Below are positions 23,410-48,344 of a stretch of DNA of 49,349 nt, piece by piece. The stretch comes from a virus. Its lineage: Duplodnaviria > Caudoviricetes. Position numbers and translations under genes: made by a program. The notes under the pieces are model-generated. The model was not told the DNA's origin, did no database searches, and was given only the letters and a program-made list of their open reading frames with translations. Every line of letters begins with the position of its first letter. The stretch's first letter is position 1. Location: IMG/VR virus record IMGVR_UViG_3300032290_001111, positions 1 to 49,349 of that record; one strand, written 5' to 3'.

Positions 23410-23410
23410 C

Positions 23411-25941: not shown

Positions 25942-26039
25942 GCAAGAAGCTCAAGACCGTCCTCGAAATCGCTGCGGAGGTGTTCGGGATCATCGTGGCG
26001 GCGATTCCGATCATCCGGATATTCCGGAGGAAGAAGTGA
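25938..26039 (+). CDS. 33-aa membrane peptide
   Basis: MSKKLKTVLEIAAEVFGIIVAAIPIIRIFRRKK; ATGA overlap. Confidence 0.55.
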   Translation: MSKKLKTVLEIAAEVFGIIVAAIPIIRIFRRKK

Positions 26040-26143
26040 TCGCCCACATCCATCACATGCCGCACATGCACACGTGGGAGCAACTGCTGGTAGCGGCGAT
26101 ACTCGTCGTCGTGAGCGCAGTTGCGCTGAGGGGAACGCGATGA
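26036..26143 (+). CDS. 35-aa His-rich membrane peptide
   Basis: GTGA overlap; IAHIHHMPHMHTWEQLLVAAILVVVSAVALRG. Confidence 0.5.
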   Translation: MIAHIHHMPHMHTWEQLLVAAILVVVSAVALRGTR

Positions 26144-26943
26144 GCCGCGAAACGCCACGGCGGCGGCCCAGGAAGACCAGGACCGTATTCATCAACGGTC
26201 GATTCATCAGTGCCGACCCAAGAAACCACACGGTAGAAGCATACGACCTCTCCGAGTGCGACCCCCACAACACCTTGATCGCCGCGGTGCTCGAACTACG
26301 AGCCCGCGTCGAGCAGACACCAGCCATAGCGCCATACTTACAGACATTGCTCTGCGAGACGGACGCCGATGGTTCCATAACCCACTACACGCCCGTACGC
26401 TCCGGCGCGGTAGTAAAAGCAATCCTGAGCGCAAGAAAACAACATGAGTAAGAAACGAAAGCCCAAGACTATCATCGTGATTCCAGAAAAGGAAATCACC
26501 CCTGGTGACGTCATCCATGCAGCGACTCAAATCAGCCGAGCGATCGGCGCGGTTCGGGATGCGGTGGATGCGGCGAAGCCGATCATCCGGCACGCCATGA
26601 AGCGGGGGCGCAAGTAATGTTCACCTGGAACGTAAGCCTGAGCGCGAAACAGGTTCTCATGCTCATGGCATTCAATGCCACCGAGCCGGACGAGCACGGC
26701 AGCCAGTTCTCCGCAGTGCAGGACTTGATCACGGACGCGTGGAGTATCCGTGGAGCGCGCGGACTCTGCGAGGAGGGGTTTATTCTCGCAGTTCATGACG
26801 GAGTCCGGTCGAAGTGGACGATCACCGAAAAGGGCAGATTGATCGCCAACGCAATCCTGCTGGACGCGAAATCCCTGTCCGGGATTGAGGAGCGGCTCGG
26901 GAGGAGCCTGCGCAAAGCAGTGAACGCAGCAAGCACACGATGA
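26140..26943 (+). CDS. Three small hypothetical genes (26140-26451, 26444-26617, 26617-26943; last is winged-helix-like)
   Basis: Coupled ORFs; last has LCEEGFI...WTITEKG wing motif. Confidence 0.55.
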
Positions 26944-28427
26944 ACATGCTCGACACATTCAAAGCAGCCCGTCGCTCCGGCTGCCCAATCGTCGCCATAC
27001 GCACTCCGGACAGTCACGCCACCATCGGCGAGATCCTGAAGGCGCAGGAAAAGTATCCGGTGCTCCGCTGGGACGTGTGCAGGGGTATCGTGGGGCTCAA
27101 CGCGGCTGGTTCCGAGGCAGAGTCCACGATTAACGGAGGGCTGGAGCCAGCAATAGCCACTGGAAACCCAGTGGAGGCCCTTCAGCTATCGCTCGCCAAA
27201 GCACCGCAGGGCTCGATCATCTTCATGCACAACCTCGGCATGATACTTGAGCTGAACGACAGCTCCCGAATCCCGGTGATCCAGGGCATCAGTAACGTCA
27301 GGGATGCGTTCAAGTCGTCGCTTCGCACGCTGGTCCTTATCGGGCCGGACGTGAAGCTGCCGCCGGAGCTGTCCGGCGACTCGATCACGCTCGACGTAGA
27401 GCTCCCAAATCCGGAGGCGCTCGCCGCCATCGCCAAGGGCATCCATAAAGCCGGGCAGGTGCCAGAGCCATCCAAGTCCGACATGAGCAGAATCGTGGCG
27501 GCCGTGCGAGGTCTCTCCTCATTCGCGGCAGAGCAGTCACTCGCAATGGCGCTCACGCAGAAGGGTATGAACATCCCGATGCTGTGGGATCAGAAGAAGG
27601 CAATCATCGAGCGCGCGGGAGGGCTCAAGGTAAGCAAGAGCGCCGTGACGTTCGACTCGCTCGGCGGCCTCGAATCCATCAAGGGGTTCGCTAAAATGAT
27701 CCTCGGCGGCCGCAGGGTTCCGAAGCTGGTCGTGCTGATCGACGAGATCGAGAAGCAGATGGCTGGTCTTGGAGACTCCAACGGCATCAACCAGGACGCA
27801 TTCGGTCAGTTGCTCGCAGCGATGCAGAACAACAACTGGTCAGGGATGCTGCTTCCCGGATTCCCTGGAACTGGTAAGACAGAGTTCGCCAACGCGCTCG
27901 GCAATGAGGCTGGAGGACTGTTCATCCAGATGGACCTCGGCGGCACCAAGGGGTCGCTCGTGGGCCAGTCAGAGAAGATGATCCGCAACGCCATCCAGAT
28001 GCTTCTGGCAATGGGCGGCGAGGACGTGATGTTCGTCGGCACATGCAACAGCATGGCGGGGTTGCGTCCGGAGCTGAAGCGACGCTTCGGGCACGGCACG
28101 TTCTTCTTCGACCTGCCGACAAAGAAGGAGCTCGTCCCGATCTGGGACATCTACCGACAGAAGTTCGACATCGCGGAGGAGCCGCCGGACTGCTCCGACT
28201 GGACTGGCGCGGAGGTAAGGAAGTGCTCACAGCTCGCATGGGAGCTCGACATCCCGCTCACGAAAGCCGCGAAGTTCATCACTCCGGTTGCGAAGATCAT
28301 GGGCGAGGAGGCGGATAAGCTCCGCAAGTCGGCGCACATGCGCTACCTGTCTGCGTCATACGATGGGCTCTACAAGTGCAACCCGTCGAAAGATGACATG
28401 GCGCGGATGATCGCCAAAAGCAACTGA
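26940..28427 (+). CDS. Ycf46-like AAA+ ATPase with permuted motif order
   Basis: Ycf46-like N-domain (VKLPPEL, RGLS, FDSLGGL); LIDEIEK precedes GFPGTGKT; sensor-1 VGTCN, RRF, FFFDLP, TGAEV. Confidence 0.85.
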   Translation: MNMLDTFKAARRSGCPIVAIRTPDSHATIGEILKAQEKYPVLRWDVCRGIVGLNAAGSEAESTINGGLEPAIATGNPVEALQLSLAKAPQGSIIFMHNLGMILELNDSSRIPVIQGISNVRDAFKSSLRTLVLIGPDVKLPPELSGDSITLDVELPNPEALAAIAKGIHKAGQVPEPSKSDMSRIVAAVRGLSSFAAEQSLAMALTQKGMNIPMLWDQKKAIIERAGGLKVSKSAVTFDSLGGLESIKGFAKMILGGRRVPKLVVLIDEIEKQMAGLGDSNGINQDAFGQLLAAMQNNNWSGMLLPGFPGTGKTEFANALGNEAGGLFIQMDLGGTKGSLVGQSEKMIRNAIQMLLAMGGEDVMFVGTCNSMAGLRPELKRRFGHGTFFFDLPTKKELVPIWDIYRQKFDIAEEPPDCSDWTGAEVRKCSQLAWELDIPLTKAAKFITPVAKIMGEEADKLRKSAHMRYLSASYDGLYKCNPSKDDMARMIAKSN

Positions 28428-28428
28428 T

Positions 28429-29672
28429 ATGGCCGACCTCGCCGAACAGGAAGTCATCAACAACGATGATATGAGCCAGATGCTTGCGTGGCTCAATAGA
28501 AAAACGACAGTCGAAATCGCAAGGCACGTAATCGCTTTGGAAAAGCGCGTGCTTCGACTATCATCAAATGCCCGTGCGCTCGCGTATATTGCCTCAAACG
28601 AGGAATTCGTGACCGGAGCACCACTCGACATGATCGAGTCGGTGTTTGGCAGGAAACTGAAGTAACAAAACGACTATGAATACACTGAAAGAACTGATAG
28701 AGAAAGCAACACCGCTGCCGTGGAGCTTCGAGACTGGAGAGCATTGCTGCTTCCACGCAGGCAATCGAGTAAGCATCATCCGATGGTCCAAGGATGGGCC
28801 AGATGAAAATAATTGCGAGACCGTCGCAGAAGTCTGGCCAACCTCCGGGGATTCGGACATCGCTGACGGGGCGCTCATCGCCCATTGCGTGAACAACTTC
28901 GCGCAGGTGATGGAGGCACTGGAAAGGTCGCATGAGGTCATCAAGGATCTCGCTTCCGCTTACAGCGACGACGCCACGTTCGATGAAAAGAATGGCGGCT
29001 ATGGGGCTGGGACGATGAGCATCAACGAACGGGTCATCCGCGCGGCGCAGACGATCCCCCCTGGGGAGAAGGAGGCTAAATGAGCCGCTCTGAACAAATC
29101 GCTGCGATCTACAAGACCATCGACGATCTGAGCGACGAAGGGTGCGATGCGCGGGTGCGAACCGACTACTCCGGACGGGCCATGTTTGGCCGGACGTGCT
29201 ACGGGATCACATCCCGCGAGCAAAACGACGAGCAAGTGATCGAGTTGGCGGCACGGAATGGATTGCGCGGAGCCCGCGTGGACTCGATGGGCCTGGGCGT
29301 AATCGTCTATTGGCCCAGCATCAATGGGGAGTCCAAATGAGCAAAACAACTCAACAAATAGCGGAAGACTGCGGGCTGGATACCAACGCGGTTCATCTGT
29401 TGGGTTTGGCGCTCAAAACTCCAGACAGCGACACGGACGAGACCGCGAAGCTCGGTGCCATCATTGGCGCGCTCTACCGGCGCATTGAGAGGCTGGAGGA
29501 CTGGAAGACAGAAGCAATCTCGGTGACGCCGCCTATGCAGGAAATAGGAGCCGCGCTTGGCCTGCCTCTCGGGGTCAGCATTCACGACAAGATACTCCCA
29601 GGGATTGTCGGAATGAAGGAGACCATCAGGGTTCTTGAGTGCAATCTCGCGGAAGCGGGAGGGCTGGCCTAG
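28429..29672 (+). CDS. Four hypothetical genes (28429-28665, 28676-29083, 29080-29340, 29337-29672)
   Basis: Coupled ORFs; 28676 has ATPLPW...ALIAHCVNNF. Confidence 0.6.
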
Positions 29673-29986
29673 TGCCCTGCTTCACGATGTCTTCGATGGA
29701 AACAACCCTCGAAGCGAAAGACCCCGCAACCCTGAAAGCCGCCCTTGAGGAGATGGGATTCGCCGTGCGAGAGATCGCCGGGCAGATCAACTTCTCAGGC
29801 CGGAACAAGGAGACCGGGATGTATGAGACCGGGAGCTACATCAACGGTGTGCTCACCGCCTCCAAGACACTGAGCGTGAACTCAGTGAAGAAATCCTACG
29901 CCGTACAGGTTGCGGCGCAGGCAGCAAAGAAGATGGGGTTTAAGTTCGGGCAACTCCCGAACGGAACCTACGTCACATACCAATAA
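29672..29986 (+). CDS. DUF1257/Ycf35-like protein
   Basis: KDPATLKAALEEMGF ... KSYAVQVAAQAAKKMGF pattern; near Ycf46-like ATPase. Confidence 0.6.
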   Translation: MPCFTMSSMETTLEAKDPATLKAALEEMGFAVREIAGQINFSGRNKETGMYETGSYINGVLTASKTLSVNSVKKSYAVQVAAQAAKKMGFKFGQLPNGTYVTYQ

Positions 29987-29991
29987 CGACC

Positions 29992-30210
29992 ATGCCAAAG
30001 CACAAACAAACATGCCCGATCTGCTCGATGCCGATCGGGGAAGGAGAGCAACTGATCGCCTACTACTTCGCCCCGAAGGACTGGTGGGTGATGCACCACC
30101 TGAAGGCTTCTCCGAACGAGAACCTTATCGGGAACGAGGAAATGCTCACCGTTGTCGGCGCGAAGTCCACATGCGCGCTGGCCGGATTCCGTGAACCGGA
30201 GATGAAATGA
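29992..30210 (+). CDS. Hypothetical zinc-ribbon protein
   Basis: CPIC motif; coupled to next ORF. Confidence 0.5.
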   Translation: MPKHKQTCPICSMPIGEGEQLIAYYFAPKDWWVMHHLKASPNENLIGNEEMLTVVGAKSTCALAGFREPEMK

Positions 30211-30455
30211 AGATCGAGCAACTCGACTCGAAGCCGCAAGGCACAATCTTCACCCACGAAGTCCTTGAGGACGGAACAGTGAAGACCACCAGCGGGAAGA
30301 TCGCCATGCCGATCCACTCAAAGGGTGAGGCATTGCTTCGCGACCTGATCGCGCAGCTCAACGGTGGCAAGGGAGCGAATACTCGCACCAACCTGCCTCA
30401 TGCCCATCGGGATACCGGGATGCACGTTCATGGCGGCGAGGGGAGGCAGCACTGA
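30207..30455 (+). CDS. DUF2997-like small protein
   Basis: EVLEDGTVKTT..., helix, His-containing tail; usual partner of Ycf46/DUF1257. Confidence 0.5.
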   Translation: MKIEQLDSKPQGTIFTHEVLEDGTVKTTSGKIAMPIHSKGEALLRDLIAQLNGGKGANTRTNLPHAHRDTGMHVHGGEGRQH

Positions 30456-31978
30456 TGAGCATTAAGGCACTAATGGACCATACGGACTTGCCGTGGAGCA
30501 CGGACTGGCAGGATCTTGACGGCCTAACCAGGCCCGATAGAGCGCTCGCCGCCCATTGCGTGAATAACTTCATACCGCTACTGGAGGCGCTAGAAACCGC
30601 GCTGGCCCCATTGGACGCCATTCAAGACGGTCGCCTGAATGATGCATCACACATTATTCCCGGAGCGATTAACAAGATCATGAATGCGCTCGCTACCGCC
30701 AAGGAGGTGAAGTGAGCAACCTAATCCTCGACCCTGACTCCGAAGATGCGCGAGAATGGCTGCGCTGGTTTCTCGGAATGATTGCAGATGGCGGGCTATG
30801 GCAAATCCCGAGAGCCGACACGGTGTATCAAATCCTGCATGGGAACAAGACCATGAAGAGGGTATCCGGTGGAGGCGACAGGGATACAGAAAAGGTCGCC
30901 AAGGCGATCGGATGGAGCGTGCAGGTATGACGCCATTCCGCAAGACCTACGAGAACCTCGCAAAGCCGCCAGGAGGCTACGCAGAGGTCGAGATATGCAC
31001 CGTGAGGCGCTACAAGCCCAGCGGGATGCTTCCGTCGCTTTACGCCCGCGTCACGGAGCCGCACCAATGCGACCCGGACTACGAGCTGGAGCATGGCTGC
31101 CCGACCGGACCCGTGGAGATCGGAGTATTCGGCAGGATCGACAACGAAGCGCCGCGATTGCTGTTCGTCAGCGACACCCCGGAATGCGCCCACGAGGCGC
31201 TTGCGATGCTCGGAATCATACCTCCCGCAGTAGCGACCCAGGATCATAGAAAAACGCTCGGCAGCCACATTGTCATCGCGGAGCGGGTCAGCGACAGCAC
31301 GCACGCCATCGTGGCGGCGTTCAATAAGCCGAAGCGCGTGACAAATGAGCGGTTCTCGCTCGCAGTGGAACTGACGCGCGTTCTACTATCACCATCAGCC
31401 GAGGTGCTGGAGAGACAGGATCTCCCAACCACGCTCGACGACATCCTCCCAAACAATGACGCTTCGATAACGATCGATCCGTCATCAAAATAATACAGAC
31501 ACATACCATGAAAGTAACTACAACAAAGATCGCAACCCTCACACAACCATCCTCCTCGGTCATCGAACCGAAACCTACGAAACAGGAGATTATCGCCGCG
31601 ATGGTTATCGCCGCGAGAGCTCAATGGAACGAGAGAAAGAAGGCGTCGGACGAGATCAACGAGGCTGCACGCCTGGAGATCGTCAATTACATCAAAACCA
31701 CGCCCGGGTTGCTGATGGTTGATGAGATTGACAACTTCGCCGACGTATCTTATCCGCGCAAGCGGGTGCAGGTAACGGTGGTGCTGAGGAAAGACAAGAA
31801 GCTCGACGGAATGATCAAGAATTATAACGCACTTGAGACGCTCTACGCCTTCGACGAGCACGCTATCGAGGAGAAGATCAAGAAGGCAATGAAGGCAGAT
31901 CCGCGCAGGGTGAAAGTCCTGTCGGAAAGCCACGAAATCAAAGCTGCTCTGGACAAGATCCAGCGCATGTTCAGCTAA
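30455..31978 (+). CDS. Four hypothetical genes (30455-30715, 30712-30930, 30927-31493, 31508-31978)
   Basis: Coupled ORFs with RBSs. Confidence 0.6.
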
Positions 31979-31993
31979 GCAGAGAAAACACCT

Positions 31994-33085
31994 ATGACAA
32001 AATACCAAGAATTCGCGAGAGCGAACCACACCCCAGGAGCCGAAATCAACGACCTCTGGCACCCCTTAATTCAAGTCGAATGCCAGGTGATGAACCAGGA
32101 GGAGTTCGAGCGCAAGGAGGCAGAACGCAAGCAGCGAGAGGAGGAGCGCGCCCGCATCCGCGAGGTCATCTCCAAGACCGCGGACATCAGCGCGGACCTC
32201 ACCGGCCGCATCGTAGTGAAGGTCTCGTTTGAGGGATCGCACGCGAAGACCAAGCGACTCACCGCCTCGGAGCGTGCGCTGGTGATCAGCCAGCCGTACA
32301 ACGTGAAAGGTGTGATCGGGGCCGAGAAGCCGCTGTTCGAGAGCGAGGCTTACGACGACCTGATGAACTTCATCAGCGAGCGCCGCAATGACTTCGCCTC
32401 TTACGGAATCCCGCACATCCACTTCGCATCATCGCATGTTGTTGACGTGATGCGTATCCCGGAGATCGAAGACCTGTCGGCCCGCACCGAGAAGCAGCTC
32501 GCCGAGAAGGTCGAAGCATTCGCGGCTGACTGGCCGCGCGCCATCGAGGCTGCCAAGGAGCGCCTTGGCCCGCTGTTCAAGGCCGAAGACTACAAGCCCG
32601 TGGAGGCGATCCGTTCGCTGTTCAAGTTCAAGTATGACTGGATGGCGTTCGGAGTGCCGGATCAGCTCAAGCAGTTCGACATCAAAATCTACGAGCGCGC
32701 CTGCGCGAAAGCGGAGAAGGCGTGGAAGCAGATCGAAGCCAATGGCGTGCTTCTGCTGCGCGAGACTATCATGGAGCTCGTCGGTGGACTATCGGACGCG
32801 CTGACGCCGAAGGAGAACGGCGATAAGAAGCGGTTCTACGCATCCAACGTCACGAAGATCCAACAGTTCGTCGAGGACTTCAAGAAGCGGAACATCTGCA
32901 ACGATGCGCTGCTTGAAGCGGAGGTCGAGAAGCTCAATTCGATCGTGTCGGACATCGACACCAAAGCACTGTCCTCGGACGACGCCCTGCGTTCATCCGT
33001 CAAGGCGAAGATGGATGCAACCAAGGAAGTTCTGTCCGAGCTTGTTATTGACGCCAACTCGCGTCGTATCACATTCGAAGAATGA
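31994..33085 (+). CDS. DUF3150-like helical protein
   Basis: 363 aa; LGPLFKAEDYKPVEAIRSLFKFKY and FKKRNICND motifs. Confidence 0.6.
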   Translation: MTKYQEFARANHTPGAEINDLWHPLIQVECQVMNQEEFERKEAERKQREEERARIREVISKTADISADLTGRIVVKVSFEGSHAKTKRLTASERALVISQPYNVKGVIGAEKPLFESEAYDDLMNFISERRNDFASYGIPHIHFASSHVVDVMRIPEIEDLSARTEKQLAEKVEAFAADWPRAIEAAKERLGPLFKAEDYKPVEAIRSLFKFKYDWMAFGVPDQLKQFDIKIYERACAKAEKAWKQIEANGVLLLRETIMELVGGLSDALTPKENGDKKRFYASNVTKIQQFVEDFKKRNICNDALLEAEVEKLNSIVSDIDTKALSSDDALRSSVKAKMDATKEVLSELVIDANSRRITFEE

Positions 33086-33194
33086 AACGCTTGATCAAAT
33101 GGATTCGCCTGCTGCTCGCCCGCAGGAAGCCTACGCCACTGGCCGACCACATGCGCCGGTTCAACGCGAAGCCCCCGAAGGTCACGGAGGACCG

Positions 33195-34200
33195 ATGACG
33201 CAACGCAAGCCCAGTCACCCCGGCCACGACGACCCGGTGGTGATATTCCAGGGCGGAGGATACGATGGGTGCTTCTGGGAGTGGAACGCCATCTTCTTCA
33301 CTCGCGATGGAGTCACAAATAGGCTTGTGGCCGATCCGCTGCAATCGTCAGTCTCCGGTCGCTCGGGGCGGGCGGTGTTTGAAGCATTCCGGCAGGGAAT
33401 CCGGGATGGATTCGAGACCGCTATCGCGAAGTCGAGAAGGGAGCGTCCATTCCGCATCAACACGCTCGCCCGATGGGAGGAGTTCCAGAAAGAATTCAAC
33501 CCCGGGTTCATCCGGTCAGTAGCAAGGCATGGGCAGTGGGACGTGAAATGCCAGGGTTGCAAGCGATACTTCGATGCAGACGAAATCTTCCACACGAAAT
33601 ATGGAGGAAACGGCGGCATTGGTATCGTATTCCACGACGTCGTATGTAGTGAATGCGCCGACTCCCAGCATGACCAGTGGGTTGCGCGCGACATCTGGCC
33701 AGGAATGAAGCCAAAAGAACGGATTGAAGCAGTGAAAACAGCAATCGAACGCGGCATAGACATTGATCTTTCCGCAGCGGAGCAGGACGAGTGTCCGGTT
33801 CCCGGCGATTGTGTGTATGAAAACGAACTATACTGATATGAACCCAACAGACCTTGACATCTACTCACCCGAGCAAATGAAGGTGAGTGCGTTTTTCGAC
33901 CGGCATGGAAGTCAGTCGTATGAAGCAGCAGCCACGGGGGCGCTTCAGGCGATCCGCGCGGCCCAGCTTCTTATGCTTTCGGTTCCGCACGCGATATTCA
34001 AGCGGGTGTGCTACGAGGAGTGCCTGAAGGCGAAGCGCGCTGGCGCAACCGAAAAGGAGATACTCCGATCGACACTGTTCGCCGACACGCTGGAATATCT
34101 TGAGAAATCCAACGGCGCCGCAAAGGCGTTCATTGAAGCGGGCGGGCTCGGTGATGACATTGCAGAGTCAATCCGCAAGGCAGCGGAGGAAGAGCAATGA
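33195..34200 (+). CDS. Two hypothetical genes (33195-33836 with zinc ribbon, 33838-34200)
   Basis: ORFs with RBS; QGGGYDGCFWEWN motif, CxxC pairs. Confidence 0.6.
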
Positions 34201-34970
34201 GGGCGATTCTGTCGATCTTGCTTGCGGCCTCGGCGGCGTTCGCGCAGGACGCAAATTCCCGAGCGGCGCAGAAACATCCGGCGCTCAAGGTGCAGGGGAG
34301 CGAATTGCATTCACGGTTCATGACCCTGTACGGGGAGGCGGTGAAGACACAGTCGCCAGTCCTCAGCGACCCGGAATGGCCGACCGTTCTGGCCGACAGG
34401 GCCGCGGCGGACATAGCAAAACCGAAAACACCTGCAAAGCAAGGGCTCTCCGGATTCCTCAATATTGCATGGGGAACGCCTCGCGACGAGGCGGTCAGGC
34501 TTATGTCGGCTCGCGATGGGGTGACTGTATCGGAAGGCAGCGCATCCGCGGCTCTCTTCAAGGGCGGTCAATTCGCTGGCGTGGACGTATCCCTGTGGGC
34601 GCTAGCGTTCGACAAGGAAGGAAGAATGCACACGGGGCGCGCGTCGATGCACCCAAGGCCGAGCACCCTTCTCGACAAATACAGCGACATCAAATCGTTG
34701 ATGGCCGAGAAGTACGGCAAACCCGCCACGGACATATACCGGTTCCACTACCCATACGACAGCGATTCAGAGGGTCACGAGCTGACGGCTATTCGAGTCG
34801 GGAAGGCGACCATTGCGTCCTACTGGACATTCCCATCCCCAGGCAAGCCGGACAACATCATCAGCGTTCGAGTAACCGAGTCGCAGGCGATCATGATCAC
34901 GTATCAAAACGGCGATCTGATTCGCGCCGTTACTGACGACAAGAAAGGAGAAAACATGAAAGACCTGTAA
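34197..34970 (+). CDS. Secreted/periplasmic protein
   Basis: Sec-type signal peptide MRAILSILLAASAAFA|Q; GFLNIAWG...EKYGKP pattern. Confidence 0.7.
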   Translation: MRAILSILLAASAAFAQDANSRAAQKHPALKVQGSELHSRFMTLYGEAVKTQSPVLSDPEWPTVLADRAAADIAKPKTPAKQGLSGFLNIAWGTPRDEAVRLMSARDGVTVSEGSASAALFKGGQFAGVDVSLWALAFDKEGRMHTGRASMHPRPSTLLDKYSDIKSLMAEKYGKPATDIYRFHYPYDSDSEGHELTAIRVGKATIASYWTFPSPGKPDNIISVRVTESQAIMITYQNGDLIRAVTDDKKGENMKDL

Positions 34971-34980
34971 CGCATAAAGG

Positions 34981-35015
34981 AAAAGGGCCGGGGAGAAATC
35001 CCCGGCCCTTTTTTT
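34981..35015. terminator. Bidirectional intrinsic terminator
   Basis: AAAA-GGGCCGGGGA-GAAA-TCCCCGGCCC-TTTTTTT between convergent operons. Confidence 0.92.
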
Positions 35016-39365: not shown

Positions 39366-40228
39366 TTCGCGCCTCCTTGACTCATCAGCCGGGCCTCCAG
39401 CTCGCGCTGATACTGGTCCCGCTTCGCTTTCTCCTCCGCCTGCCGCTCGGCCGCGGTTCTCTGCGCCGACGCGACCACGGGGCTACTGGGCGCGCTGAAC
39501 CGCTCGAAATTCATCTTCCACGTCCGGGCGGCCGCCCTCCAGTCCTTCATCTTCACCCGCCCCAGCATCCATCCGCGCGCCGCGTGATGATTGATGAATG
39601 CCTCTGCCTGCCGTGCGGACTCTCCGTTCAGTCCGCTGGCCTTGAAAAAGTCTGCGACGTCGTCCTGCCGCGGAGGGGAGAACCGACGGGGCGGTGCGTC
39701 CAGCAAAAGGGGGTCGGCGGAATTAGGGGATTTGTTACTGCATTTTGTTTCTACGGTCCTGGTTTCCTCCCTTCCTCCTTGCCCAACCCCTTCCATCCCA
39801 AGATCATTATTACTACATTCAGTCTTACTGCTATCCTTCTTACTATGATACCGATTTTCAAGATCTTGATTTTCAGGATCTAGCTTTTCAAGATCTTGAT
39901 TTTCAGGATCTAGCTTTGGGAATGAGGCAATATCTGAAACATGAAGCACCCATGATGACACCCTGCCGCCATCCCTCTGCTGGACCAGCTTTGCGTATCC
40001 AGCCTTCCGTAATTCCAGAAGAGCTGCGCGAACTGAGTGCTTTCCGTCAGTAGCGCGGTTGAGTAGATCGCTGACACGCACCTTCCATCCGTCCGGCTTG
40101 CTGAGGATGTATGATAAGATGCCCTTAGCTCCCCAAGACAGGCCGGGATCATCTAGTAGGGTTCTTGGTATTCTTGCAAACGGGTCCAGCTTGCCCGCGA
40201 GTCTGATAATTGTAGAGTTGGTTTCCAT
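39362..40228 (-). CDS. Replication initiator protein
   Basis: LSWGAKGILSYILSKPDGW HTH; internal iterons; C-terminal GW..MKDWRAAARTW; directly upstream of helicase. Confidence 0.85.
   Translation of the reverse strand: METNSTIIRLAGKLDPFARIPRTLLDDPGLSWGAKGILSYILSKPDGWKVRVSDLLNRATDGKHSVRAALLELRKAGYAKLVQQRDGGRVSSWVLHVSDIASFPKLDPENQDLEKLDPENQDLENRYHSKKDSSKTECSNNDLGMEGVGQGGREETRTVETKCSNKSPNSADPLLLDAPPRRFSPPRQDDVADFFKASGLNGESARQAEAFINHHAARGWMLGRVKMKDWRAAARTWKMNFERFSAPSSPVVASAQRTAAERQAEEKAKRDQYQRELEARLMSQGGAK
39855..39914. repeat. Iteron array / replication origin: 2 x 30 bp = 4 x TTTTCA(A/G)GATCT
   Basis: Perfect tandem TTTTCAAGATCTTGATTTTCAGGATCTAGC x2 inside the initiator gene, next to an AT-rich tract. 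Confidence 0.85.
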
Positions 40229-40507
40229 TGAATTTTAGGCACAAAAAAGAACAGAACCCAACGACCACCCTGAAAAGTGGCACATGAAGCAGCCAAGTAG
40301 CCGCTGGATTCTGTTCTCTGAATTTCTCATGTTTTGATGTTTGATGGGCTTTTCAGTTCCCATATCGGTTGCCCGATGCGTAAAGAAATTGCAGAATGAA
40401 TCCCTCCGGTCAACAATTATTTTCTTGCGCTTTGTCGGCGCAGATGCCAAAACCCCGATCGCTCGCGACAAGTTTGTGAGCGGCTTACACTGAAAATAAA
40501 CCATACA

Positions 40508-41236
40508 ATGAACCTGATTAAAACACACACCCCCGACAGCCAAATCGTGCTGTCAGAATCCGCCACAGAGGCGAAGAAAACACTGATCCTCGCGTCATCC
40601 GAGATCGTATCCGTAGCATCCGCCGAGGAATCGAAAACCGCACGGGAGTTGATCGCTCGACTCGACCTTCACTTGAAGGATTTCGAGAAGGCGCGAGTCG
40701 CCGCCAAAGCACCATTCCTGGAGATCTGCCAGAAAATCGACGCCCTCAACCGCGACCACTCAACCTCGCTGGCTGCTGAAAGGAAGCGACTGTCCGACAT
40801 GGCTGCCAAATACGAGGCCGACGTTCAGCGAAAGGCCCAGGAGGCGGCCGCCAAGGCCCGCGCTGAAGCCGAAAAGCTGGAGCGGGATCGCCTTGCCGCA
40901 ATCGCCGAGGCAGAGCAGAAGAAGCGCGACGCGGAGAAGTCCGGAGACGCCATCGCCGCACTTGAAGCCGAGATTGCCGCCGAGACGGCGAAGGAGCAGC
41001 AGCCGGTCGCGAAAGGGTTTGCGTATCTGGACTCAAGACCTAAACCTGCGCCGGGAGTCGGCACCGAAACCGTGATCGAAATCACGGACATCAAAGCACT
41101 CTACGCCGAGTTTCCGATGTTCGTCCGGCTTGAGCCCGAGCTTGCGATGATCCGCGCCGCAGTGAAGGCCGGGCAGAAGCTCCCAGGGGTTCTCGTGACC
41201 GAGAAACCCGTGATTTCGAAAAGGAGGGGAGCATGA
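40508..41236 (+). CDS. Coiled-coil recombination-module protein (Gp157-like)
   Basis: ARVAAKAPFL..KID; C-terminal IRAAVKAGQKLPGV. Confidence 0.6.
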   Translation: MNLIKTHTPDSQIVLSESATEAKKTLILASSEIVSVASAEESKTARELIARLDLHLKDFEKARVAAKAPFLEICQKIDALNRDHSTSLAAERKRLSDMAAKYEADVQRKAQEAAAKARAEAEKLERDRLAAIAEAEQKKRDAEKSGDAIAALEAEIAAETAKEQQPVAKGFAYLDSRPKPAPGVGTETVIEITDIKALYAEFPMFVRLEPELAMIRAAVKAGQKLPGVLVTEKPVISKRRGA

Positions 41237-41763
41237 ATCAAACACAACGCCAATTCCTGCTCAGCTCTATCGAGTCTCAGTATAAGGCCGAGATACATGC
41301 CTTACGCAAAGCGAAACCCGTTGAGCCCAGCCTCAATAACTACCTAATCGCATCGATCCTCGACGGAACCTTCAAAATGAAGGATCAAGGCGCGGTGCGC
41401 GAAGCAATCCGTGAGCGCACGATCAAGCTCGGCAAGAAGGAGGCGCTCCTTTGCGGCTCCGCTGACGTATGGGGTCATCGCGGCCTGCAAGATGAGGACA
41501 CCGAGGAGAAATTCATCAAGGTTCCCGTGGGCATAATTTTCGAGCTCCCTGAGCGATATATTTCTGAGAAGAAGAAGTATGACTCCGAGATGGAGGAGTG
41601 GACGGAACGTGAGCGGCTCCTTACGTCCTCGTTTGAGGCCATGAAGATCAAGGTTCAGCTCGGGAGTGACAAGGCACTTCAATCTCTTGTGGATCAAGCC
41701 GACTCACTTTGCTCTATGTCGCTGACCGACTCCTCGAAGCTCTTCATCACAAACACCAAGTAA
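41233..41763 (+). CDS. Hypothetical protein
   Basis: ATGA overlap, RBS. Confidence 0.6.
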   Translation: MNQTQRQFLLSSIESQYKAEIHALRKAKPVEPSLNNYLIASILDGTFKMKDQGAVREAIRERTIKLGKKEALLCGSADVWGHRGLQDEDTEEKFIKVPVGIIFELPERYISEKKKYDSEMEEWTERERLLTSSFEAMKIKVQLGSDKALQSLVDQADSLCSMSLTDSSKLFITNTK

Positions 41764-41764
41764 C

Positions 41765-42082
41765 ATGGCACAACAACGCGACAATAGCGGCTCCTCGTTC
41801 CCGAACGACCGACGCCGCGAAGGGAAGAATGACCCGAACATCACAGGCTCCATCATGGTTGATGGCGCGGAATACTGGCTCGACACATGGGTCAAAAATC
41901 ACCCGAGGCAGCCAGGATACGACCCAAACAAAAAGACGTGGTATTCCCATAGTCTCCGACGCAAAGATTCACAGCGGCAGAACCGCAGAGAGGCAGCGCC
42001 GAGGCGACAAGCAGCGCCTCCGCCACCTCCGCCGTCAGACAATAACGGAGACCTCCACCCCGAAGAACAAGGCTGGAAATAA
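41765..42082 (+). CDS. Small single-stranded DNA-binding protein-like
   Basis: NSGSSFPND..DPNITGSIMVDGAEYWLDTW OB-like pattern with Pro/acidic tail. Confidence 0.65.
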   Translation: MAQQRDNSGSSFPNDRRREGKNDPNITGSIMVDGAEYWLDTWVKNHPRQPGYDPNKKTWYSHSLRRKDSQRQNRREAAPRRQAAPPPPPPSDNNGDLHPEEQGWK

Positions 42083-42088
42083 CGCACT

Positions 42089-43180
42089 ATGAACGAAAAC
42101 ACATCACTAATGACAATCGACACCATCGCCGCCATCGCCGAGAGATTCTCGCGAAGCGGCTTGATGGGAAAAGCGAGCCCTGACGCTGTCTTCGGGCTCA
42201 TGATGCTCTGCCAGAGCGAGGGGATCACACCCATCGCCGCGCTGAAGCGATATCACATCATCGAAGGAAAGCCATCCATGCGATCCGATGCAATGCTGGC
42301 GGAGTTCCTGCATGACGGAGGGCGCGTGATATTCCACGTCCGCGATGACGCGATGGTTGGCGCTACGTTCCTATCGAAATCCGCCCCCCAGGCTCAGGAG
42401 GCAGTCGATCGCGCTGGCCAACGGTTCATCGCCGTTTGGAAGCTGATGTCCGCGCCGGAAGGCCACCGGACCGAGCTCTACACCGCAATCGCCAAGCTGT
42501 CACACCCCGGAGAGGAGACGATCGTTCGCACGTTCGCGGACTGTCAGGCCAAGGGACTCACGGACGGCAACGATGGTAGTCTAAAAAAGAACTGGGCTAC
42601 GTCGCCACGCCAGATGTTGACCGCGCGCGTCATTACGGAGGGAATCAGGCTCGTAGCGCCGCAGCTCGTCACCGGAGTCTATACTCCGGAGGAGATCACG
42701 GATACGCTGGAGGTCATCACAAAGCATGCCGACAGCCCAAGAGGGAGCGCGGCGGAGCTTCGTAAGGCAGCCCTTGAGGAAAGCGACCCGGAGAAGCGTC
42801 GGCAATTACTCGGCGCTGCATCTGACCTCGCCCACAGCGAATCTACCGAGGAGCCAGCCGCAGTGCTTGTTCTCGAACAGGACGACATTCCCATGAATCA
42901 CGCGGAGCTAGCGAAGGTCAAAGAAGTGAAGCAGAGGTCCGCTCCTGAGCCATCGCCCGAGCCAGCAGCCCCGCTCCAGATCGGAGTCCCGTGGAGGGAT
43001 TACGTTGTGACGGAGCTAAAGAACAAGGCCATGCACGGCAAAAAGCTCGGGTCGCTATCCAGGCAGGAAGTGGAGATTCTTCACCGGACCCGCTGCACGC
43101 CATTCCTGAAATCCGACAACGAGGGACTACGGCTTGAAGCGGAGAAGATCCTGGAGGCTCACGAATCATTCGCACCTTAA
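42089..43180 (+). CDS. RecT/Redbeta-like single-strand annealing protein
   Basis: YHIIEGKPSMRSDAMLA, NWATSPRQMLTAR, GVYTPEE. Confidence 0.8.
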   Translation: MNENTSLMTIDTIAAIAERFSRSGLMGKASPDAVFGLMMLCQSEGITPIAALKRYHIIEGKPSMRSDAMLAEFLHDGGRVIFHVRDDAMVGATFLSKSAPQAQEAVDRAGQRFIAVWKLMSAPEGHRTELYTAIAKLSHPGEETIVRTFADCQAKGLTDGNDGSLKKNWATSPRQMLTARVITEGIRLVAPQLVTGVYTPEEITDTLEVITKHADSPRGSAAELRKAALEESDPEKRRQLLGAASDLAHSESTEEPAAVLVLEQDDIPMNHAELAKVKEVKQRSAPEPSPEPAAPLQIGVPWRDYVVTELKNKAMHGKKLGSLSRQEVEILHRTRCTPFLKSDNEGLRLEAEKILEAHESFAP

Positions 43181-43190
43181 TACCAGCCAA

Positions 43191-43484
43191 GTGCCAAAGC
43201 CTACCAAATTAGTAAATTCGCGCAAGACGCGATCCGGACGCTCGGCGCAGCAACCAGCAAGCCTCCTTCGTCGCCGCTACGTCCGCACCGTGAAAATCGG
43301 GGACAAGTGGAACACCTACCTGCAAATAGACCATCAGGGATTCTGCGTCGTGGAGCAAACCTGCCGTCAGCGGGCGCAATGGTTCGGTAAAATGCTGGCC
43401 GTCGCGCTCGAACGGATGCTGGCGGCTAACGTAGAGCGCAGCGGCGGAACGTCCGCTGCCGTGACTGGTTCGCCAACTTTATGA
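43191..43484 (+). CDS. Hypothetical protein reading through attC-like site A
   Basis: GTG start; ATGA overlap with next ORF. Confidence 0.5.
   Translation: MPKPTKLVNSRKTRSGRSAQQPASLLRRRYVRTVKIGDKWNTYLQIDHQGFCVVEQTCRQRAQWFGKMLAVALERMLAANVERSGGTSAAVTGSPTL
43424..43474 (-). mobile_element. attC-like site A
   Basis: Minus strand GGCGAAC-cagtc-ACGGCAGC-ggacgttccgcc-GCTGCGC-tctac-GTTAGCC; short (51 bp). Confidence 0.7.
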
Positions 43485-44852
43485 ACTCGCTCGAAGTAAT
43501 CAATGCCGAGAAACGCGCCTACGAGAAAGCGTGGAGATTGAAGAACATCGAAAGGTGTCGGCAATACTCGCGTGACAGCTACGCGAAGAATAAGGAACGC
43601 CGCCGCGAATATCGTTCCAAGTGGAACAAGGCAAATCGCGCAAAGAAGAATGCCATAAATAAGCGGTGGCGCGAACGACACCCGGATGTCGTGAAGGAAT
43701 GTAACCGCCGAGAAATCGAGAACCTGTCTGCGGCGTATGTGGCCAAGAAAATGCGCCTCCGTGTTGGCGAGTGTCCTCCCGAGCTTATCGAACTGAAACG
43801 AACCCATATCCAACTTAAAAGACAACTACGAAAAACAAAATGACGACACCAACGAACATGCAAGAACTCCGCGCCGTGCTCTGCGAGACAATCGCAGCCG
43901 TTCGCGCAAGAGAAATTACACCCGACGCGGCGGAAGCCGTGAGTAATGCCAGCGGCAAAATAGTCGCGAGTTTTAGGGTTGAACTCGAATACCGAAGGAT
44001 GCGCGGGGAAGTGCCAACACTCGGTTTTATGGAGGGCGCGAAATGACCAAGGAACAAGAAGACACGCTGCTTGATGACGCTAAACCTGCAAAGTCTTATG
44101 GGGTTAATCCAGCCAACACTCCGCGCACCGATGCGGCAACGATTCCTTGCGGATGGGACACAACGGACCCCGTAGTTAAAAAAACCTTCGCGCAAAAATT
44201 AGAACAGGAATTAAACGAATCTCGAATTGCGCTGGAGAGCATGGGTGAAATCGCAGGTTCCTCAGCAGAGGAAATCGAAGGGGCATTGAATCTCGTGAAT
44301 GCAGACTGTCCGGCAATGGATAGGTTCACGAACATTATTCCAACAGTGAATTGGCTTTTGCAAAAATGGAAAGAATGTCGCGAGGCTTGGAATAACGCGG
44401 ACAGCTTGGCTAAAAAGAAAATGCAAGCAAACCACCGACTGCAAGACGAGAACGCGAAACTTAACATATATTCGCAACGGCTAAGAGATGCCATAGCATC
44501 GTTGATTTACAGCGCAGAAGAAGCGGCAAAATTGATTGTTTCCGTAACTGACAGATACGACATTGACGCGGCGATTGATGCAGCAAAAGCGGTGCTGGCA
44601 AATAAGGTTTCAAATTGGGCCGATGAATCAATGGCGATGCAACGCAACTGGTGGGTGAACGTCTATCCAGATGGGAGCATTTCATCCGCTCTGTGTCGGA
44701 CCCGTGAGGATGCGATGAATCGGAGCACCTACACAGGAGAGACTCCAGACGCGATGCAGGTTGAAGTAACGCTGCACATTGTGCGGCGGGCGAACGAGCC
44801 AAGCTCAGAGACAGGCTCGGCGGGGAAACCTTTAACCGGGCGAGGCGCGTGA
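43481..44852 (+). CDS. Three cassette-borne hypothetical genes (43481-43843, 43840-44046, 44043-44852)
   Basis: Coupled ORFs, visibly more AT-rich than flanks, lying between attC-like sites. Confidence 0.65.
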
Positions 44853-44887
44853 GCGCCGAGCCTGTTCTCTGCAGCGCCTGGTTAGGG
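44789..44887 (-). mobile_element. attC-like site B
   Basis: Minus strand CCCTAAC-caggc-GCTGCAGA-gaacaggctcggcg...cgccgagcctgtc-TCTGAGC-ttggctc-GTTCGCC, extrahelical base in L''. Confidence 0.85.
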
Positions 44888-44961
44888 CGCTTTAACCGTC
44901 GCTCGCAGAGTTCTGCGGGGTGGGCGGAGTTCCAACAACCAACGCCGAAAGGCCACAAAAA

Positions 44962-45327
44962 ATGAAAATGAAACGACTCGGAAAACAGACCAAATCAGGA
45001 CGCGGCTTCCCGCTCGTGGAGTTCAAGGACTTCTACGACGTGCCTTGCAGCATCCAAGCCAGCAGCCTCGCAATCTATCAGCAGCCCGGAACGTCGGCCA
45101 TATGGCTCGGCGTCGATGACGCGGCCCCGAAAATCATGAAGAGCGATGCGCTGAAACTCGGCATGGAACTCCCGCCGGGAGAAGTCAGCGGATGGATGCC
45201 ATTCCCGGTGCCGCCTCAAGTGTCGTTCAACACGCGGATGCACTTGGACCGCAAGCAAGTGCAGGCGCTCGTGAACCACCTGCAAGCGTGGCTCGAAAGC
45301 GAAACCGGACAACTCGCGGTAAAATGA
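44962..45327 (+). CDS. Cassette-borne conserved phage protein
   Basis: RGFPLVEFKDFYDVPCSIQASSLA...IWLG...RMHLDRKQV. Confidence 0.7.
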   Translation: MKMKRLGKQTKSGRGFPLVEFKDFYDVPCSIQASSLAIYQQPGTSAIWLGVDDAAPKIMKSDALKLGMELPPGEVSGWMPFPVPPQVSFNTRMHLDRKQVQALVNHLQAWLESETGQLAVK

Positions 45328-45401
45328 ACGCCACGCACTGGAGCGGTAGCTCGCGGGCGGCGGGGGTGGCTTTTCCGTTGAGCAAAACGTCGGACGAAAA
45401 G

Positions 45402-45443
45402 AAGCGCCCTAACAAGGATTAGGCGAACAGCCGTTCGTATAAT
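45402..45443 (-). mobile_element. attI-like array-start site
   Basis: Minus strand ...gttcgcctaatcctt-GTTAGGGCGCTT; 12-bp complement of the R'' flank of site B; no attC fold. Confidence 0.5.
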
Positions 45444-46046
45444 ATGAGAGCACGAACTTTTAACTACGCGATAAATCTACTGCGCGGTTTGGGGCTGAAA
45501 TGCGAAGATTGCAGCATGGCCATCGACTTCACCAATGAGGAGATTCTCTCGGACACATGGGTGGAATACAGATTGATTGGTACCTGTAAGTGCGGCGCAT
45601 CAAGGGCCGCCTACAGGGAGTCGGAAGAGACACGCCGCATCATCAACCGCGACTACACCCAGGTTGCTCAAGAGCTCCTTAGGGTCTGCAAGCCGTCGCT
45701 GTTCCGCCCGACGCGACCGAGGGTGCCGGATTTCTACCCGGCGCAGTTTGATCTCCCATATCGTGGGATATTTGATGATGATTCGACACCAAATTCTGCG
45801 CCGAAAAACGATGAGTTCACCAGCGTGCGAAAATACGTCGATTATTCCAGTGTTCGCGACTACGCCGATTCAGATATTTACGCCATGTCCGAGATCGAGA
45901 GGCGGTATTCCGAAGCGACTAGATGGCTCGCGGGGAAGATGGCGGAATACATTGTCGATACCGTGAATCCCGCCATCAAGCAGCCCGCCCCTCCTGTGAA
46001 GATCCCGCAAAAGGAAGAGCCCCGGAAGATCTCGTGGGAGGTGTAG
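45444..46046 (+). CDS. Hypothetical protein with zinc ribbon
   Basis: CEDC..CKC; convergent with terL. Confidence 0.55.
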   Translation: MRARTFNYAINLLRGLGLKCEDCSMAIDFTNEEILSDTWVEYRLIGTCKCGASRAAYRESEETRRIINRDYTQVAQELLRVCKPSLFRPTRPRVPDFYPAQFDLPYRGIFDDDSTPNSAPKNDEFTSVRKYVDYSSVRDYADSDIYAMSEIERRYSEATRWLAGKMAEYIVDTVNPAIKQPAPPVKIPQKEEPRKISWEV

Positions 46047-46047
46047 C

Positions 46048-47889
46048 CTACTGGACGTTGGCGGCCGTCGTTTCCTCTGGCATGGACAGGAGTCCTTTTT
46101 GAAGGGCGCGGATTGCAACATGGCTCTCGCAGTCGGCGAGATGGTTCTCCTGATGGAGTTCGACCCACGTCCACTCGATCTTGCCCGTCCTCTTGTTTTT
46201 CTGCTGCCGCTTCACGCGCGAGTTCAGGTGCCGCTGATACCGGTCGCTGACGTTGATCGAAGCGTGCCAGATCACGGGGTTGGCATATCGGAGACTGGAG
46301 ACCAGATCCAGCGCCCCGTTCTTCGAGAACTTCACGAACCGCACGCGCTGCGCAGTCCTGTTCTCCCATGCGGTCCCGAGCAGCGGGTCGCGGAACTGGA
46401 CCTGTGAGTAAATCCTTGTCGTGCGGGTATGGTTCGGGCCGGGGTGGTAGAACTCCTTGGTATTGCTGCCCCAGATGCCACGCCAGCCGTAATCGAGGAT
46501 GATGCGCCCGACAGCGTTCGGGCGGTGGGCCATGTCTACGGTGACGTCCTCGTCCGCGACCCCATACTCCAACTGCAACTTCTTGAGGTCGTCCTCGGTG
46601 TCCACGCGGTCGGCAAAGACCAGCCAGCTCTCGCCGTTCGGCTTCTGCGGAGTTGGCTTGAGGAATTTCCGGATAAGCGCCCAGTAGTGCCCCTCCTGCG
46701 CGTCGATGGCCATGAGCGGAACGGAATCCTCCGGGGTGGAGGTGATTTCCTCCAGCGGGATTTCCTTGTGGTCGTATCCACGGGACTCATCCCACGGCTC
46801 CGCAAGCCAGGAGTTCACGAAGTTCTGACGGTCCTTCAGTAGTCTGGCGGTGAGGAACTGCACGGCGCACGCGCCCAGCGAAGTCTGCTGCGAGAGGATC
46901 GAGTAAAGCGAGCTGAGGTGGTACCCGTAAGAGCCCGCGCGCGCATCCGTCCTTGTCGGGGTCCAGATGCCCTCCCCGACCATCAGTTGGCGCTCCGGCT
47001 CGGAAATCTCACCGCCGCACTCCTGGCAGCGGTAGAATGCGTTCGCCATCACCTTCTCCATGTCCCATGCGTCGTCCTTCTTCGCCTCGTCTGGATGCTC
47101 CCTCCACCACCGGATGCCGCAATCCCCGTGCTCTTCGCTCTTGACCGTGAAGAGCAGCTTGATGCGCCTCTCGCACCGCGGGCACGGCAGCATGAAGTTC
47201 CTCATGTCTGTCTTCTGGAACTCCTCCCAGATCATTCGATTCGCCAGCGTAGGGGTCGATGCCTTGACGATCAGAGGAAACGGATAGGACTTCGTGCGCT
47301 CCTCGGCGAGCTGGATTGCTGCCGCCTCATACTGCGACTCCTCGCCGAACTTGTCCGTCTCGTCCATCCACAGCGCGCCTACGGGGCGGGAAGAAAGGTT
47401 GGCCGGGGAGTTGGATCCCACGAAGTTGAGCACCATCGACTTGAAGTGCTGCTCCGTAAATCCGAACAGGTGCTTGTCGATCTCCCCCGAGGATGTCTTC
47501 GGGATCTGCTGCAAGGCAGCCTGACAAGCCCTGACCTGCTTCTGCCACCGCGACTTCGAGAATGACTTCGCAAGGTCTCCGTTCGGAAGGACCCACATGG
47601 CGTCCTGCGGGTCGCGGCAGAGGACGTAGAGCATCCCGAACTGCATGAAAGACGTTTTTCCGCTCTGAGTGCCCTGAACCATGACGACGTTCCTCGTGCT
47701 CTTGTCCCCGAGTCGCTCCAGTGGCTCACGCAGGTATGGAGTGATCGACAGCGAGACATTGCCCTGGATCGCGCCGGTGGGGATGTAGCAGTTGCTCTCC
47801 ACCCACTCCACGACGCTCTCCTTTCGATGAGGGCGAAGCGCTTCAAATAACTGCTTTCGCAGTTCCTCCATCGCGGGATACTCGCTCAC
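46048..47889 (-). CDS. terL: Terminase large subunit, lambda GpA family
   Basis: TPYLREP, GTQSGKT Walker A, WMDETDKF Walker B, STPT, zinc-binding CPRC/CQEC, AIDAQ, NHLADC; start probably GTG 47889. Confidence 0.93.
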   Translation of the reverse strand: MSEYPAMEELRKQLFEALRPHRKESVVEWVESNCYIPTGAIQGNVSLSITPYLREPLERLGDKSTRNVVMVQGTQSGKTSFMQFGMLYVLCRDPQDAMWVLPNGDLAKSFSKSRWQKQVRACQAALQQIPKTSSGEIDKHLFGFTEQHFKSMVLNFVGSNSPANLSSRPVGALWMDETDKFGEESQYEAAAIQLAEERTKSYPFPLIVKASTPTLANRMIWEEFQKTDMRNFMLPCPRCERRIKLLFTVKSEEHGDCGIRWWREHPDEAKKDDAWDMEKVMANAFYRCQECGGEISEPERQLMVGEGIWTPTRTDARAGSYGYHLSSLYSILSQQTSLGACAVQFLTARLLKDRQNFVNSWLAEPWDESRGYDHKEIPLEEITSTPEDSVPLMAIDAQEGHYWALIRKFLKPTPQKPNGESWLVFADRVDTEDDLKKLQLEYGVADEDVTVDMAHRPNAVGRIILDYGWRGIWGSNTKEFYHPGPNHTRTTRIYSQVQFRDPLLGTAWENRTAQRVRFVKFSKNGALDLVSSLRYANPVIWHASINVSDRYQRHLNSRVKRQQKNKRTGKIEWTWVELHQENHLADCESHVAIRALQKGLLSMPEETTAANVQ

Positions 47890-48344
47890 AGCCATCTGAG
47901 TGCGGCGTAGTTGATCGCGAGGTGCAGGGTGTTGTCGGCGGCGATAAGCAGCCACACAGCAAGAAACGGTGGTGTCTCGGATGGATATCCGGTCGCGCTG
48001 CAATTACTCCACATCCATCGCGGCGTGTCATAGTAGTGTTCCTTAACGACCGCATCGAACTCCGGAGATGGGGATTTTGGAACTGGCAGTATTCCGCGTT
48101 TGATCCAAAGCCCAAGCACGATATTCTTCCAATACACCACGAACCTAGCCAGACGCCAGCGGTCGATCGCAAAGTGCGTCAAGAAAATGACCGCACACGG
48201 CAGCGCTCCTCCGATAAGCAGGAACGGCAGTGAATAAGCCAGCGCGTGACAGAACGCCGCAAAACTGTTCCGCGCCTTGTTTTGGGCCATCCAGTCAGAT
48301 TGTGTGACGTAATCTCCAAAGAGGTGAAGTATGAGTTGTTCCAT
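47886..48344 (-). CDS. DUF3307-like membrane protein
   Basis: HLFGDYVTQSDWMA, HALAY, HFAIDR, DNTLH. Confidence 0.8.
   Translation of the reverse strand: MEQLILHLFGDYVTQSDWMAQNKARNSFAAFCHALAYSLPFLLIGGALPCAVIFLTHFAIDRWRLARFVVYWKNIVLGLWIKRGILPVPKSPSPEFDAVVKEHYYDTPRWMWSNCSATGYPSETPPFLAVWLLIAADNTLHLAINYAALRWL

Follow-up and report, generated by a model that had tools for sequence, protein, structure and literature searches.

The stretch of DNA analysed here (the window) is the whole 49,349-bp record of an uncultured tailed phage (G000), a linear contig that CheckV estimates to be 67% complete. Between its RecT gene and its terminase large subunit gene lies a cassette array with the following features:

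40,508-43,180, plus strand: upstream operon with exonuclease-like, SSB and RecT genes (PHROG matches)
42,089-43,180, plus strand: RecT (PHROG match)
43,191-43,429, minus strand: eroded cassette 3, with an ORF at 43,191-43,484 (plus strand) and a decayed R'' at 43,257-43,263 (GCAAGCC for GTTAGCC)
43,424-43,474, minus strand: attC2, 51 bp; detector score 14, covariance model 29.6 bits; a near-identical copy occurs in the related locus L004
43,430-44,794, minus strand: cassette 2, 1365 bp, probably composite; attC2 and three antisense ORFs (43,481-43,843, 43,840-44,046 and 44,043-44,852)
44,597-44,603, plus strand: eroded R box GGCAAAT, where cassette 2 ends in L004 (there GGCGAAC)
44,789-44,887, minus strand: attC1, 99 bp; detector score 19, covariance model 33.6 bits, fold z -3.1 to -3.4
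44,795-45,412, minus strand: cassette 1, 618 bp; attC1 and an antisense gene, R boxes pairing over 12 bp
44,849-44,965, plus strand: linker ORF through attC1, 38 codons, overlapping the preceding stop and the following start; predicted from sequence only
44,962-45,327, plus strand: cassette 1 gene, 121 aa; phrog_3849, unknown function
45,324-45,422, plus strand: ORF across the attI crossover, 32 codons, AAC read as Asn, stopping in attI; likewise a prediction
45,413-45,443, minus strand: attI; crossover G|TT between 45,413 and 45,412, L-box-like GCCTAAT 4 nt off (45,418-45,424), second conserved motif at 45,433-45,443
45,444-46,046, plus strand: orphan ORF, 200 aa; its start coincides in position with the intI ATG of related phage integrons, and it converges on the terminase gene
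46,048-48,003, minus strand: terminase large subunit (PHROG match), right flank

On the minus strand each attC site reads R'' (AAC), 5 nt, L'' (8 nt, with an extra base at position 4), a second unpaired A, L' and R' (GTT). This agrees with the attC definition (R''-5 nt-L''...L'-5 to 8 nt-R', with extrahelical bases on the R''/L'' arm), and attC-aadA7 as printed in the supplement of Qi et al. 2023 (PMC9892861) follows the same layout convention. A covariance model trained on 41 attC sites adjoining genome-borne intI genes returned only attC1 and attC2 below an E value of 0.4 in the window, both on the minus strand. Thus, the two attC-structured sites with an extrahelical base that a sequence-only reading had proposed are present where it placed them, and judged by layout and model both hairpins are canonical minus-strand attC sites. 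For our own attC detector, 20 Markov-simulated windows gave a background of 0.15 matches per window at scores of at least 14 and none at 15 or more; it made one false match, inside an intI. attC1 folds well against shuffles (z about -3) and attC2 no better than shuffles (z -1.3 to -1.45). Pair counts in the attC alignment lean towards structure because its rows were picked by the detector, and were kept out of the evidence. The proposed mismatch of R'' and R' inside each site is clear for attC1, where 4 of 7 positions pair, and slight for attC2, where 6 of 7 do. An Rfam scan of the window returned no family.

In a canonical array the ORFs lie on the attC top strand, each upstream of its own attC. 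Here every ORF between the sites is on the plus strand and the attC sites are on the minus strand, so the ORFs are antisense, as the sequence-only reading had it; they are also co-directional with the exonuclease-like/SSB/RecT operon. R boxes pair across the cassettes as that reading claimed: the 12-bp match of cassette 1 (44,881-44,892 with 45,402-45,413) and the GTTCGCC/GGCGAAC ends of cassette 2 are both real. In L004, however, cassette 2 ends about 190 bp earlier, at the eroded R box of the window; the cassette is thus probably composite here, and its pairing may be partly due to chance. Cassette 2 is the more AT-rich one, as described (GC 0.509, against 0.60 in cassette 1 and 0.583 in the whole genome). 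Two cassettes had been counted and both hold, but the eroded third one at 43,191-43,429 was overlooked. L281 retains GTTAGCC where the window's cassette 3 has lost its R box, and in L282 the homolog of cassette 3 is an intact antisense cassette after an intact attC, adjoining an attI-like site and an intI stub. Cassette 3 is the farthest from attI, as expected of the oldest unit. For the cassette 1 gene, a homolog at 55% identity is an antisense cassette in L001 and one at 31% is a sense cassette in L178, so this gene family is present in both polarities. In the viral contig L178 (8,120-9,821) the sense array lies downstream of a distant intI and runs in the same direction.

The attI-like start that had been suggested near 45,402-45,443 was borne out by homology, since 45,413-45,443 corresponds to sites before the start codons of phage intI genes: window positions 45,411-45,446 align with the pre-intI region, ATG included, in L147, L156, L158, L163, L168, L171 and L210. 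The array is therefore headed by an attI, as a complete integron would be, and the place of the intI beside it is occupied by the orphan ORF. The latter had no match among Pfam, NCBIfam or PHROG families, and only two homologs of its protein were found among 49 candidates, one being itself. Elsewhere the slot beside attI holds the terminase end, 11 bp off (L003, L004 and L014), another small ORF (L139) or a 66-aa intI stub (L282; PF13495, 35.6 bits), and these occupants look like stages of intI loss. From crossover to ATG the distance is 30 nt in the window and in the phage clade described below, versus 127-330 nt in most chromosomal loci, which leaves little room for a Pc; a weak consensus scan found no sigma-70-like site near attI. 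An attI pattern built from the window site matched 12 viral loci, of which L130, L132, L138 and L139 are true sites by context and the remaining eight lack an array; the L014 site, also true by context, came from a separate scan. We rejected two candidate features of attI, namely the 4-nt spacer as a marker of the phage clade, as it also occurs in some chromosomal attI sites, and CGAAC-N4-GTTCG as a LexA box, as its spacing varies.

In agreement with the earlier reading, no tyrosine recombinase or IntI was matched in the 49,349 bp by PF00589, by an IntI alignment or by tblastn, in a linear record that is 67% complete and extends 3.9 kb to the right of attI. The record that contains L004 (G003) is 81% complete and runs colinear with the window for 49 kb; no IntI is present in the roughly 7 kb that it adds on the left or the 4 kb on the right. 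Together both records cover about 60 kb of a genome that is probably near 66-70 kb, the size that related contigs reach.

Integrases do occur in other phages with such arrays. In L132, attI directly precedes the ATG of a 319-aa integron integrase that scores 259.8 bits with TIGR02249, just under the cut-off of 265; the integrase of L141, 61% identical to it, passes with 274.9 bits, and TIGR02249 is the best-matching family for both. The phage of L132 also has a lone attC downstream of intI, outside its main array (L143, 2,265-2,385). With an alignment of both integrases as query we took 58 viral loci and the best 80 of 564 genome loci. In a quick, midpoint-rooted tree of 79 IntI proteins, 42 fell in one clade (SH-aLRT 100) made up of 31 viral and 11 genome rows; given the rooting, we claim no direction of IntI transfer. 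Nine of the 11 genome rows are titled Verrucomicrobiota, and it is these IntI neighbours alone that point to a possible Verrucomicrobiota host for the phage. An IntI-like gene was found in 94 of the 301 Verrucomicrobiota genomes searched, and a close prophage terminase that would assign the host in none of 401 genomes. The intI-bearing phages are unrelated to the window phage, their terminases being about 22% identical where present.

Polarity was counted by integrase group, in counts that omit four partial viral matches. At the 35 viral loci whose IntI is at least 49% identical, genes are antisense in 65/65 inter-attC segments and 27/27 first cassettes, whereas sense segments prevail (35 of 41) at 68 distant genome loci; antisense and sense segments number 12 and 3 at the 19 distant viral loci, and 5 and 3 at the 12 close genome loci. 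Arrays are also antisense at L188, L190, L195, L196, L180, L183 and L186, where the viral integrases fall outside the main clade, so the reversed layout is not confined to one integrase lineage. Also, L206, L208 and L211 are loci in bacterial genome contigs that combine sense cassettes with an integrase nested in the phage clade, a pattern suggestive of integrase exchange between phage and chromosome together with a switch of polarity.

The reversed layout was also counted in a broader set of viral loci. A search with a general attC pattern derived from this group found 106 viral loci, of which 26 have short flanks. In these together with L001, L003, L004, L015, the TJE1 phage control and the window, 128 of 132 unique segments are antisense and two of the four sense ones belong to TJE1, with coding strand and frame called by our own amino-acid score rather than by a gene caller. 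In the same set R boxes match at 3.42 of 4 positions across cassettes versus 2.20 of 4 within sites. For an integrase search we chose 50 loci for their arrays or long contigs; IntI was present in one of the 47 records searched. Seventeen of the records are at least 90% complete and 11 of these have at least two attC sites, none with an IntI; one weak recombinase match was seen. L001 (348-5,337) is a dense antisense array of at least nine attC sites in a 16-kb viral contig, where one cassette occurs twice.

The sequence-only reading had proposed a comparison of related phages at G|TT, and gene content does differ at the crossover in L003, L004 and L014. The terminases of L003 and L004 are 81% identical to that of the window and their arrays occupy the same location. 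Within this lineage three different cassette ends are found at one attI, and a cassette that abuts the attI-like site in L003 lies behind an attC in L004. Window positions 43,426-44,046 recur in L004 at 91% identity, attC2 included, in a match that begins within the R box of attC2 and has a different cassette upstream; attC2 thus forms a unit with the genes on its right side, and this settles the polarity independently of extrahelical bases. The more distant terminase relatives L005-L012 have no array in the DNA examined. Among 50,697 phage records, blastn with the array gave zero matches, and tblastn with the terminase gave nothing at 60% identity or more.

Further variants came from Logan contigs of five sequencing runs, two of which (X1 and X2) may be the source samples and one of which (X4) belongs to another study. 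Three other cassette ends occur at the window's attI, in X2, X3 and X4, and all of them part from it at the AAC triplet of the crossover. One X2 contig, at depth 24, starts at the AAC at 44,793 and branches at the AAC at 45,411-45,413, with a flank depth of 8-10. Right of cassette 1 it has three continuations: attI, an attC half, with the break directly after AAC (45,413/45,414), and a short hairpin. Left of attI this run shows cassette 1 at depth 3 and a different end at depth 6, for a flank depth of 8, this second end being tied to the orphan-ORF flank by a 30-nt contig overlap. The third end, in X3, is on a contig that reaches about 130 nt into the orphan ORF, and the fourth, in X4, is seen over 33 nt of attI. 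The cassettes are thus units bounded by G|TT crossovers, whose neighbours switch at AAC in L003, L004, L014 and X2-X4. Loose ends at 43,329, 44,106, 44,117 and 44,195 point to mosaic exchange away from the att sites as well. The ORF at 44,043-44,852 is a three-part mosaic, and it is at the last three of these positions that X2 and X3 contigs depart from it. A further loose end in X2, behind window position 45,415, joins cassette 1 to an A-run and a short GC-rich hairpin (depth 15.8, 24 nt seen) and is possibly a secondary insertion site. Neither excision joints nor circles appeared in the contigs of the five runs, a form of data that drops rare forms.

The ORFs of the array also follow one another without gaps. 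From 43,191 to 45,422 seven ORFs, two of them the short predictions, follow each other with a stop/start overlap of four bases at 6/6 junctions, and all three crossovers of the window are in-frame Asn codons in this overlap chain. Among 184 phage junctions, 97 have no ORF call reaching the site, 27 have an ORF that stops there and 60 are read through, with AAC in the Asn frame in 50 of these 60; part of this bias arises because TAAC contains a stop codon in one of the frames. An ATG with a Shine-Dalgarno-like motif is found on 40% of 245 phage attC bottom strands versus 6% of 66 chromosomal attC sites. In ordinary integrons, the translation of one cassette is reported to affect the next (available text of PMC11511950). 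It is likely that the attC hairpins at this locus double as translation connectors. A weak consensus scan of 40,000-46,300 found no sigma-70-like promoter on the plus strand, so the upstream RecT operon is the likely source of the cassette transcript.

Taken as a whole, we consider it probable (about 70%) that the locus is a phage integron of reversed polarity, with an attI, two intact attC cassettes, an eroded one and an orphan ORF in place of intI, which is likely still recombined in trans, most likely by an IntI of the phage clade from a co-infecting phage or prophage. In this scheme the attC bottom strand, which here is the plus and coding strand, would be folded and cut by IntI, and cassettes would enter at attI as in any integron. 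As the genes face attI, they would be transcribed from the phage recombination operon rather than from a Pc. Each attC probably provides both the last part and stop codon of the gene before it and the start of the gene after it. The newest cassette would be the last in the operon, whereas older ones would move ever nearer to RecT, shed their attC and end up as permanent phage genes. The sequence-only reading had the phage shuffle its own genes with an IntI of the host. Gene change bounded by G|TT supports the shuffling; the source given for the integrase is less well supported, since the attI matches that of the phage-borne IntI clade at the same 30-nt distance to the ATG, and the locus is better read as a phage integron that has lost intI. 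By this attI form and distance, a helper of the phage clade is favoured as the integrase source, with a chance somewhat short of even; the enzyme is no less likely to come from a co-infecting phage or prophage than from a chromosomal integron, and an integrase from the host chromosome seems rather unlikely. That no integrase acts on the array at present is less probable still, and a gene of the phage's own in the unseen part of its genome comes last.

A quite unlikely, though real, rival to a reversed integron that still recombines is a frozen relic, in which IntI built the cassettes in integrase-bearing phages and this lineage now swaps them only by RecT-type recombination via short homologies in attI, attC and genes. 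RecT is encoded directly upstream of the array, erosion affects both cassette 3 and the R box inside cassette 2, mosaic breakpoints lie within cassette 2, and the contigs held neither circles nor joints. Moreover, a crossover anywhere in the shared 30-nt attI would also resemble a break at AAC, and as the phage encodes RecT, homologous swapping has to be taken seriously. What speaks for continued site-specific recombination is that attI, attC1 and attC2 are all intact, that single cassettes switch neighbours precisely at AAC, and that at least three cassette ends join an attI allele identical to that of the window although attI varies among intI-bearing phages. We regard it as improbable that the array is a split but complete integron whose own intI lies outside the record. 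The incomplete assemblies (67% for the window, 81% for the colinear G003) and the related contigs of 66-70 kb would leave space for it, but the additional DNA of G003 lacks it, intI of the phage clade sits about 30 nt from the crossover, and IntI was found in 0/11 near-complete records with arrays.

It could also be argued that no reversed system exists, the hairpins being chance or terminator-like structures, or the cassettes having been inverted by top-strand recombination. The poor fold of the 51-bp attC2 would fit chance, and top-strand recombination is able to invert cassettes according to the available text of Nivina et al. 2016 (PMC5027507). Nevertheless, top-strand insertion flips gene and attC jointly, and here the attC sites keep their canonical orientation towards attI, the reversal being limited to the genes. 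Chance and inversion are also at odds with the better match of R boxes across cassettes than within sites, and they are largely refuted by the antisense segment counts, the polarity of the IntI clade and the covariance model, which makes them very improbable beside a reversed phage integron.

With two clustered attC sites 1.3 kb apart and no intI within 49 kb, the array is a CALIN by definition, though a phage integron of reversed polarity that lacks intI is the better description. The available text of Cury et al. 2016 (PMC4889954), whose definition this is, lists intI loss as one origin of CALINs and treats mobilisation in trans as speculation. Unlike CALINs, SALINs or attG insertions (PMC4889954; Loot et al., 10.1101/2022.09.11.507474), in so far as the available texts describe them, the window keeps a true attI rather than a secondary site, and population data speak for change at this attI. 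The array also resembles the CALINs of virulent phages (Qi, Rajabal, Ghaly, Tetu and Gillings; PMC9892861), which have at least two attC sites in a phage, no intI and small phage-type cargo, and in which IntI1 recombined 5 of 6 phage attC sites with attI1. In contrast to the window, the TJE1 genes are sense to their attC sites in both segments that we computed (2/2), and the available text reports no attI, antisense genes, phage integrase clade or variation between relatives. With class 1 and chromosomal integrons the locus shares the attC anatomy, the G|TT crossover, an attI beside the intI position and cassettes stacked from attI. It differs from them in that its genes are on the bottom strand of attC and point towards attI, in the replacement of intI, and in the short distance from crossover to ATG given above. 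Inverted-integrase integrons (PMC13323075) also have intI co-directional with the cassette genes; as described in the available text, their intI is flipped relative to attC and the genes are sense, while in the reversed phage layout intI and attC are regular and the genes are flipped. In the literature covered, with few subscription papers, we found no description of antisense phage cassettes or of a phage IntI clade.

Integrons are described as bacterial devices, in which the strand rule serves to place genes under Pc. At this locus the same rule would act on reversed genes transcribed from a phage operon, and cassettes still change at attI in a phage whose record contains no integrase. The orientation rule itself was set out for integron cassettes by Nivina et al. 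2016 (available text of PMC5027507). If confirmed, this would provide a site-specific mechanism for the turnover of phage accessory genes and a route, traceable at the sequence level, from cassette to fixed gene. Small parts such as the attI, two attC sites and the 319-aa integrases make CALIN mobilisation in trans and cassette origin testable. More tentatively, and with slightly more doubt than belief, phages may run a mirror-image integron economy, in which a phage IntI clade spreads the attI-intI module among unrelated phages and integrase-free satellites keep only attI and are serviced in trans. In this economy the attC hairpins would be rebuilt as frame-standardised translation connectors, so that the early operon can take up any cassette, and ageing cassettes would decay into ordinary phage genes. 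If true, such an economy would be a site-specific source of phage mosaicism and possibly a birthplace of new cassettes.

The cargo of related arrays includes DNA methyltransferase-like and MazG-like genes (L132, 6,014-6,727; L141, 105-845; L004, 7,202-7,636; L003, 2,947-3,330). Within the window itself, positions 17,500-35,000 hold a long plus-strand series of small ORFs, most of which match none of the families scanned and in which the covariance model finds no attC; the same part also encodes a peptidase, an AAA ATPase and an HNH gene.
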